A stretch of DNA of 64,000 nucleotides, from the NCBI RefSeq assembly GCF_003334335.1, contig NZ_QOWQ01000008.1; one strand, written 5' to 3'. Every line of letters starts with the position of its first letter. Position 1 is the stretch's first letter. Source of the DNA: Escherichia coli. Lineage in GTDB: Bacteria; Pseudomonadota; Gammaproteobacteria; Enterobacterales; Enterobacteriaceae. Shown here one piece after another: positions 48,417-48,865 of this stretch. Below the pieces are notes generated by a model, which saw only the letters and a program-made list of their open reading frames with translations, searched no databases and was not told where the DNA came from. The translations under genes were made by a program, and so were the position numbers.

Positions 48417-48510
48417 TAATCAAAAGGAAACAAAAATCATTGTAAACCATGCCATCTTTTTAGAGATTACCAGCAGAAAATTCCTTGTTCGAAATTTAGC
48501 AGTGCAAGCT

Positions 48511-48666
48511 ATGGAAAAACTTACAACGGAACTACACTCCTTAAGTGAGATGGACCGAAGACATGTAGTCTCTATTTTAGCCGAAATAGCTAATGGCTAT
48601 GATGATTTTAATGACATGTTGATTTATTTAGAATTTTACCCGAATCATAAGATTCTGATATCTTAA
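48511..48666 (+). CDS. yrhD: Small 51-aa ORF in the yrhA-yrhB spacer (possibly YrhD)
   Basis: Hand translation: ATG 48511 ... TAA 48664-48666 gives MEKLTTELHSLSEMDRRHVVSILAEIANGYDDFNDMLIYLEFYPNHKILIS. Below the ORF-track size cutoff. Gene name assigned from position and remembered length only. Confidence 0.4.
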   Translation: MEKLTTELHSLSEMDRRHVVSILAEIANGYDDFNDMLIYLEFYPNHKILIS

Positions 48667-48865
48667 ATAAGAAAATCCCGTTCGACGTTCTGAAAAAGAA
48701 ATCATAAAATATTAGCAGATACTTATTTCGTGACTATATCTTATCCGATGAACTTTTTTCAAAACCAGCATTTAATAATATCTTTGACGAAGATGAACGC
48801 GTCTTTGCTCAATGTATCACACAGGAATAATAATATAACACTCAACAATAATATTTATTATAATT

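Follow-up and report, generated by a model that had tools for sequence, protein, structure and literature searches.

Introduction

Immunity genes that have outlived their toxin are well known from polymorphic toxin loci, where a conserved N-terminal part is combined with exchanged C-terminal cassettes and toxin-less immunity genes trail behind the active pair, as described for contact-dependent growth inhibition (CDI), Rhs and type VI secretion system (T6SS) loci (PMC3482391). Among effectors carried by Hcp, an HNH-DNase activity and a cognate immunity have been demonstrated experimentally for Hcp-ET1, as recounted in passages of reviews of Ma et al., 2017 (PMC6730261; PMC6099711), and the immunity family Imm35 is specifically associated with the papain-like toxin Tox-PL1 (PMC3482391). 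Here, we describe a locus of this kind in a stretch of 64,000 nucleotides of Escherichia coli DNA (NCBI RefSeq assembly GCF_003334335.1, contig NZ_QOWQ01000008.1), referred to as the window in the following. Our subject is the 449-bp spacer (48417..48865, no strand assigned) located exactly between the stop codon of yrhA (48416) and the ATG of yrhB (48866), behind the Hcp-type effector gene yhhZ. With a probability of roughly 0.75, we propose that this spacer is composed of two pieces left behind by cassette stacking, namely a segment of debris carrying the 51-codon frame yrhD and a dead immunity gene stemming from an earlier version of the toxin.

Results

The start-less frame upstream of yrhB

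A sequence-only reading of the window had noticed a frame without a start just ahead of yrhB and had suggested that it could be the remnant of an orphan immunity gene. The frame itself is as described: positions 48708-48833 of the plus strand read NISRYLFRDYILSDELFSKPAFNNIFDEDERVFAQCITQE followed by two stops (TAATAA) and contain no ATG. Its 40 codons (48708..48830) form the 3' two-thirds of a longer remnant, downstream of a TAA specific to the lineage of the window, and we accept it as real because of its homology and not because of its length. The complete remnant, here termed the 'imm85' pseudogene (48666..48830, plus strand), belongs to the family of the Citrobacter protein WP_006687449.1, which comprises 85 amino acids (aa), and retains 54 of the 85 codons, with codons 2-54 kept and about 31 C-terminal codons lost. 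Positions 48669-48827 align without gaps to residues 2-54 of the 85-aa protein at 47-49% identity (pairwise BLASTP: 25/53 identical, 47%, no gaps, E 1e-16; tblastn: E 1e-12 to 4e-13; Smith-Waterman: z = 24 against shuffles), and, reciprocally, the Citrobacter protein finds this region of E. coli by tblastn with an E value of 1e-6 in a 7.3-Gb database.

All five E. coli haplotypes of the spacer carry AAT at 48666-48668, in place of the ATG of the relatives. In the lineage of the window, the frame is further interrupted by an in-frame TAA at 48705-48707. The four other haplotypes read CAA at 48705, which leaves them with a frame of 59 codons and explains why some databases hold a 59-residue version; sequence L005 features a 1-bp deletion within the remnant. 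Across the five haplotypes, 5 of 21 changes in the remnant are synonymous, matching the transition-weighted neutral expectation of 23%. Purifying selection on this frame was considered on account of an early pairwise ratio of nonsynonymous to synonymous substitution rates (dN/dS) of ~0.15 and rejected when this signal vanished with five haplotypes and the transition-weighted expectation. No intact open reading frame (ORF) with a start and full length is found at 48666..48830, which we consequently regard as a pseudogene of the 85-aa family rather than as a member gene. This copy is dead, evolves neutrally and, in our reading, does nothing as a protein, and it is unannotated as far as the annotations and the literature examined show. 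Exactly at its truncation before yrhB, an imperfect tandem duplication of 21 nt (AATGTATCACACAGGAATAAT / AATATAACACTCAACAATAAT) is located at 48811-48852, which may be the scar of the deletion junction.

The intact relatives were reached by scanning one genome per species with a YrhA alignment, which revealed Citrobacter youngae. There, the site between yhhY and ggt holds an Hcp-HNH gene, a YrhA homologue (66% identity) and, 20 nt downstream, an intact 85-aa ORF, whose product is a conserved hypothetical protein of C. youngae (WP_006687449.1) and Citrobacter koseri (ABV15907.1 cluster). In C. koseri, the same site encodes Hcp fused to a toxin domain of no recognised class (toxinX), followed 1 nt later by the 85-aa gene, a frameshifted Imm35 gene, an 86-aa ORF and ggt (toxinX pair at 3746-5258 of L033-L035). 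Plasmid P3 of Deinococcus gobiensis carries a standalone toxinX-like gene (43% identical) overlapped by a 96-aa ORF (2552-3165 of L038), and the product of this ORF can be aligned to the 85-aa protein from one end to the other (z 5.7). The pair is kept in Citrobacter and Deinococcus, and a toxin-immunity relationship is therefore supported. Position and the conserved gene pair thus suggest an immunity function for the 85-aa family, and, given the homology to a gene behind an Hcp-fused toxin, the sequence-only reading was right to suggest an orphan immunity remnant for this frame. The C-terminal domain of toxinX matched no entry of Pfam, NCBIfam or the PDB. Neither an intact 85-aa gene nor the conserved C-terminal part of toxinX (queried with the last ~200 codons, covering the conserved domain) was found by distant blastn in any complete E. 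coli genome. In a low-confidence structural model of the 85-aa protein, the C-terminal third that the remnant lost is predicted to form a beta-sheet.

Immediately ahead of ggt, three Citrobacter species carry a further small ORF of 83-87 aa (MITETELNVLK...; L019 4771-5034, L011 5302-5553, L035 5599-5859), which may likewise have an immunity or accessory role in Hcp-toxin loci. In many E. coli genomes, DNA about 80% identical to it adjoins other tssD genes elsewhere on the genome.

The 51-codon frame yrhD

The second frame noticed from the letters alone is likewise present, letter for letter: positions 48511-48666 of the plus strand translate, from ATG to TAA, to MEKLTTELHSLSEMDRRHVVSILAEIANGYDDFNDMLIYLEFYPNHKILIS. 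It had been called unlisted, which holds insofar as it falls below the length cutoff of the ORF track; in RefSeq genomes of E. coli it is already annotated, and the entry beneath the spacer reads 'yrhD: protein YrhD'. The product is 100% identical to WP_001307436.1 / Swiss-Prot P58037 (YRHD_ECOLI), encoded at the same place between yrhA and yrhB, and a pan-genome paper of 2012 lists YrhD as Swiss-Prot P58037, EcoGene EG14370, function unknown (PMC3575317). Hence, yrhD is a known gene and not a new one. Our literature search found no report of a function or of expression of YrhD. Direct reading of the upstream sequence revealed no obvious Shine-Dalgarno motif, and among random sequences matched in length and composition, 14-17% contain an ATG-initiated ORF of 51 codons or more. 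The frame is enclosed by a plus-strand run of 91 codons free of stops (48391..48666), which has no canonical start before the yrhD ATG.

Comparison across strains revealed a pattern of decay. The haplotype of the window type (100% identity) has an intact yrhD, as has haplotype L036 (97.6% identity), here with four amino-acid changes. In L004 (95.8%), codon 39 is altered from TAT to TAG, in L008 (94%) codon 23 from TTA to TAA, and L003 (92.7%) combines the same codon-23 stop with an ATG to ATA change; RefSeq flags yrhD as pseudogene in all three of these. Thus, three different lesions, one start loss and two nonsense mutations, break the frame in three of the five haplotypes. At the variable sites within yrhD, one change in 15 is synonymous, in comparison to 23% expected under neutrality, and the other 14 are nonsynonymous, nonsense or start loss. 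Pairwise dN/dS amounts to ~2 for yrhD, compared to 0.1-0.6 for yrhA and yrhB. Across these strains, we therefore found no purifying selection on the yrhD frame. As present-day genes, neither frame of the spacer is conserved, with lesions in yrhD in three haplotypes and no start codon for the other frame in any of the five; this is the outcome that the sequence-only reading had itself named as counter-evidence.

Relatives of YrhD appear to be confined to E. coli. A word-indexed search of 5.8 billion clusters found none beyond this species, and exhaustive phmmer against 1.84 billion representatives returned self matches plus two artefacts from repeat proteins of other organisms. Plasmid tblastn with YrhD yielded mislabelled E. 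coli chromosomes and insignificant matches, and neither frame matched Pfam (frames concatenated) or NCBIfam (each frame separately). Among the variants from Logan assemblies, P0015 and P0017 display many T-to-I, H-to-Y, S-to-F, R-to-W, A-to-V and P-to-L changes, a pattern of C-to-T conversion (bisulfite-treated or deaminated reads) and not of natural divergence. P0027, P0028 and P0008 represent fusion products of some assemblies, running either from YrhA into the yrhD frame (246 aa) or, via a frameshift, from yrhD into the beginning of the remnant (63 aa); a single indel readily rewires the frames of yrhA, yrhD and the remnant.

The segment carrying yrhD comprises ~245 bp between yrhA and the position of the 85-aa gene and is absent from C. 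youngae. The stop codon of yrhD (48664-48666) shares one base with the codon that matches the ATG of the 85-aa gene. The idea that the 51-aa ORF, too, is an orphan immunity remnant gained no support, as its product does not significantly resemble YrhA or YrhB, the 85-aa protein or any of the three toxin C-terminal domains and has no homologue outside E. coli.

Several other origins of this segment were tried and rejected. For the spacer as a remnant of the Gln_amidase toxin paired with yrhB, no protein or nucleotide similarity was found, and homology with Escherichia fergusonii resumes only ~4 nt before the yrhB ATG. A derivation of yrhD from the 3' end of toxinX of C. koseri found no support from tblastn, from blastx (comparison set: 3817 stop-to-stop segments of the related loci fetched by then) or from a hidden Markov model (HMM) of the Citrobacter and Deinococcus toxin domains, nor did the region of the 91-codon frame match, in any frame, an ORF of the related loci fetched by then. 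One marginal match links frame +3 of 48437-48523 to residues 228-256 of toxinX (Smith-Waterman 38, z 5, p 0.0008 before correction for 9 tests); it crosses three stop codons, agrees in 34/87 nucleotides and is outscored by at least one other gap-free offset. Apart from this stop-ridden match, no C-terminal fragment of an orphan toxin was detected in the segment with toxinX, Gln_amidase or HNH. A diverged tandem paralogue of the 85-aa gene was likewise dismissed (BLASTP E 0.04, shuffle p 0.03-0.11, hhalign probability 0.5%), and so was a relationship to YrhA, YrhB or the 86-aa Citrobacter ORF (z < 1.4). RNA elements, promoters, terminators and mobile elements were discarded as well: the spacer has no Rfam match, its promoter-like sites are at chance level (5 found versus 3.3 +/- 1.8 in shuffles) and a search for terminal repeats of mobile elements found only low-complexity repeats. 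Taken together, the yrhD segment most likely represents decaying debris of a cassette, with a frame that has stayed open by chance in the widespread K-12-like haplotype; its lack of function is what we infer.

The adjoining gene yrhB

The clearest orphan immunity gene at the locus is one that the sequence-only reading had not flagged. The product of yrhB (48866..49150, plus strand) matches Pfam Imm35 (PF15567) over its full length (model positions 1-85, E 4.6e-23). At the same site, E. fergusonii and Citrobacter portucalensis encode an Hcp-Gln_amidase fusion (PF15644), whose gene overlaps with the orthologue of yrhB, and in Pectobacterium a C-terminal Gln_amidase domain of CdiA is followed by the same Imm35 family. 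With a dN/dS of 0.11-0.37, yrhB appears to be under purifying selection, and megablast of complete E. coli genomes detected no DNA of the E. fergusonii Gln_amidase toxin at roughly 85% identity or above. It looks like an intact orphan immunity gene against the glutamine-deamidase-type Hcp-Gln_amidase toxin of E. fergusonii and Citrobacter. For both yrhB and the 85-aa remnant, homologues directly follow a toxin elsewhere, and the cognate toxin domain was not found at this locus. The yrhB orthologue of C. koseri (L033/L035, 5300-5576) is frameshifted or truncated, with two tblastn segments and only 75 aa called, in contrast to the intact gene of E. coli.

Gene order, composition and distribution of the locus

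The spacer is embedded in the order yhhX (minus strand), yhhY, yhhZ, yrhA, spacer, yrhB and ggt (minus strand). The gene yhhZ (46747..47925, plus strand) encodes Hcp fused to a C-terminal HNH nuclease toxin of the Hcp-ET1 type (Pfam T6SS_HCP E 5.7e-11, a weak HNH match, NCBIfam TssD 2.3e-33), which RefSeq names 'Hcp1 family type VI secretion system effector'. It is followed by yrhA (47922..48416, plus strand; NCBIfam YrhA family 1.7e-35), which putatively provides the immunity that belongs to the HNH toxin. Compared with L004, the lineage of 95.8% identity, yhhZ of the window displays 17 nonsynonymous and just three synonymous differences, and this dN/dS of 1.5 suggests relaxed constraint or diversifying selection on the toxin. 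While yrhA is intact in the window, K-12 strains carry an IS1 inserted within it; IS1 is also found in strain PKF8, where a deletion has removed the locus between the 3' end of yhhY and a point 70 bp ahead of yrhB. The activity of IS1 thus reshapes the locus (L001/L002 2674-3371; L007 2788-3485).

The two-gene pair of HNH toxin and YrhA was furthermore found on a Pantoea plasmid, on IncHI2 plasmids and on the chromosomes of Citrobacter, Atlantibacter and Leclercia, in the latter two behind other N-terminal domains. The pair is itself mobile.

With a GC content of 30.7%, the spacer is about as AT-rich as yhhZ (33.9%) and yrhA (28.5%), as had been noted from the sequence, compared to 45.6% for yrhB and 52.2% for the whole window. 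Nucleotide identity between E. coli and E. fergusonii is 84-100% up to ~47399, then collapses and resumes at the above-mentioned point before yrhB. These borders delimit a variable cassette (~47400..48862, no strand) comprising the HNH domain, yrhA, the yrhD segment and the immunity remnant, between the conserved Hcp N-terminal part and yrhB, and GC stays at 26-36% throughout.

By megablast, the spacer was found in 3809 of 5426 complete E. coli genomes, chromosomal every time, with identities of at least 99% in 2786 genomes, 95-99% in 543 and 90-95% in 480. Divergence between its lineages (4.2-7.4%) equals or exceeds the synonymous rates of yrhA and yhhZ (dS 0.012-0.069). A contig of 3996 bp labelled as a metagenome-assembled genome of uncultured Flavihumibacter (L018, CABHOW010000200.1) matches this locus with 100% identity in the spacer and 99.5% in YhhZ, which is almost certainly E. 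coli contamination of that assembly.

Discussion

The homology of the remnant, the synteny of the compared loci and the pattern of decay are direct observations, and together they point to a history of repeated exchange. Four Hcp arrangements occur at the site: Hcp-Gln_amidase with Imm35; Hcp-toxinX with the 85-aa gene and a decaying Imm35; Hcp-HNH with YrhA and the 85-aa gene; and that of E. coli, in which Hcp-HNH and YrhA are followed by the yrhD segment, the dead 85-aa gene and Imm35. In our proposal, the yhhY-ggt site would hold a polymorphic T6SS toxin gene consisting of a conserved Hcp N-terminal part, an exchangeable toxin end and its immunity gene. Each incoming cassette of toxin and immunity gene would have replaced the old toxin end and stranded the older immunity genes downstream. 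The common order of the 85-aa gene followed by Imm35 in C. koseri and E. coli speaks for successive cassette replacements that left older immunity genes downstream, with their sequence in time being probable rather than directly read. The current pair in this E. coli would be the HNH toxin of yhhZ and yrhA, with leftovers of two earlier pairings behind it. One of these is presumably the dead 85-aa gene at 48666..48830, from a pairing with an unclassified Hcp-fused toxin as in C. koseri; the other would be the intact Imm35 gene yrhB, whose putative partner, Hcp-Gln_amidase/Tox-PL1, still resides at the site in E. fergusonii and C. portucalensis. Among other E. coli, this position proves to be a hotspot: O157:H7 carries an unrelated AT-rich island with a DUF4225 gene and 733 unannotated bases, and in strain TO124 the site is empty, yhhY and ggt being separated by only 60 bp (L039, L040).

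Several observations weigh against this proposal. The yrhD frame is intact in at least 2786 genomes (the band of at least 99% identity) and in a second haplotype with four amino-acid changes, so that a function limited to one lineage is conceivable. A stop-free run of 91 codons (48391-48666) is mildly unusual, with p ~0.02-0.03 in random sequences, and genomic SELEX (systematic evolution of ligands by exponential enrichment) placed a site of the RpoD holoenzyme, with H-NS, upstream of yrhD (PMC3946193). The spacer sequence was read in five haplotypes, with genome counts per haplotype derived from identity bands and sampled annotation rows. On the side of the remnant, the immunity role of the 85-aa family is based on position and co-occurrence; the protein matches no entry of Pfam, NCBIfam or the PDB, and its AlphaFold model is weak (predicted local distance difference test, pLDDT, of 65, with the other four models at ~40).

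Based on part of these observations, yrhD could be a genuine young gene for a small protein, restricted to and functional in the K-12-like majority lineage and the haplotype with four changes and lost elsewhere. Its annotation and integrity in at least 2786 of the 3809 spacer-bearing genomes, the second intact haplotype, the RpoD site and the complete lack of substitutions among 68 YrhD members (PMC3575317) would fit such a gene. The last point, however, reflects one recently shared haplotype, and only one of the 15 changes seen between haplotypes is synonymous. With three different inactivating lesions, no obvious Shine-Dalgarno motif, no homologue elsewhere, a length within chance and no functional report found in the literature, we consider a young functional gene unlikely. 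More specifically, yrhD might be a very young coding gene born in one lineage out of displaced toxin-cassette debris, transcribed from an H-NS-controlled promoter, translated, and dead in the sister lineages. We regard this as a speculative scenario with little probability, which, if true, would make yrhD a datable gene birth inside a polymorphic toxin locus.

Alternatively, the C-terminal fragment of an orphan toxin could once have stood ahead of the 85-aa immunity gene, with the yrhD frame as its 3' end; this would be a displaced toxin-immunity module as in CDI and Rhs loci. The 91 codons open without a start would agree with this, as would the one-base overlap between the yrhD stop and the position of the immunity ATG, which is typical of coupled toxin-immunity junctions, and the C. 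koseri toxin ending 1 nt before the 85-aa gene; the weak +3-frame match to toxinX could be counted here as well. Yet that match is the stop-ridden one described above, no similarity to the conserved C-terminal domain of toxinX was obtained by tblastn, blastx or HMM, and 245 bp fall far below the ~190 aa of the toxin domain, which renders a toxin fragment improbable. Finally, both frames might be open by chance in a non-coding regulatory spacer, e.g., an H-NS-bound promoter region of yrhB, given the AT-richness, promoter-like hexamers close to yrhB, the H-NS/RpoD SELEX site nearby and the ease with which frames of 51 and 59 codons stay open by chance at this composition. For 48666-48830, this is refuted by database-level significant homology of the start-less frame to the Citrobacter gene, and since, in addition, promoter-like sites do not exceed those of shuffles and no Rfam family matches, a purely regulatory spacer is very improbable. 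Cassette debris followed by a dead immunity gene consequently remains the reading that we prefer.

These readings account for a so far unexplained stretch of the K-12-type chromosome of E. coli: yrhD should probably not be counted among the conserved genes, a pseudogene lacking annotation adjoins it, and yrhB, called chaperone-like in the literature (PMC10723866), is better read as an orphan immunity gene. In terms of evolution, at least four Hcp-toxin arrangements at one site across Escherichia and Citrobacter suggest that trailing genes record earlier versions of the toxin. As a lead for future studies, the toxinX/85-aa pair of C. koseri and its counterpart in Deinococcus may represent an uncharacterised toxin-immunity family, of which most E. 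coli would then carry the fossil. The general principle, orphan immunity genes behind polymorphic toxins, is left unchanged by these findings.

Compared to its closest known counterparts, the locus combines familiar and distinct traits. The K-12 gene for YrhD (P58037) is the same as the ORF of the window, with the difference that in K-12 the yrhA upstream is cut by IS1. The dead gene resembles the 85-aa family of Citrobacter in occupying the same chromosomal site, after Hcp-toxin/immunity genes and before yrhB or ggt; in Citrobacter, the gene is intact, with identities of 88% or more among its copies, whereas the E. coli copy is start-less, shortened and neutral. With respect to the Imm35/Tox-PL1 pair, yrhB is a full-length Imm35 whose orthologues stand directly after Gln_amidase toxins, with no close match to the E. 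fergusonii toxin sequence (roughly 85% identity or above) in complete E. coli genomes. To Hcp-ET1/ETi1, as reviewed, yhhZ is likened by its architecture of Hcp and HNH, with yrhA behind it in the position of the immunity gene; the passages of the reviews cited above (PMC6730261; PMC6099711) do not mention trailing remnants. Finally, as in CDI, Rhs and other T6SS loci (PMC3482391), toxin-less immunity genes are located behind an active pair with a conserved N-terminus and an exchanged C-terminal cassette. In contrast to the orphan modules of CDI and Rhs, this locus lacks a recognisable displaced toxin fragment and employs Hcp, instead of CdiA or Rhs, as delivery domain, and of its two orphans one has decayed beyond use, while the other, yrhB, is intact.

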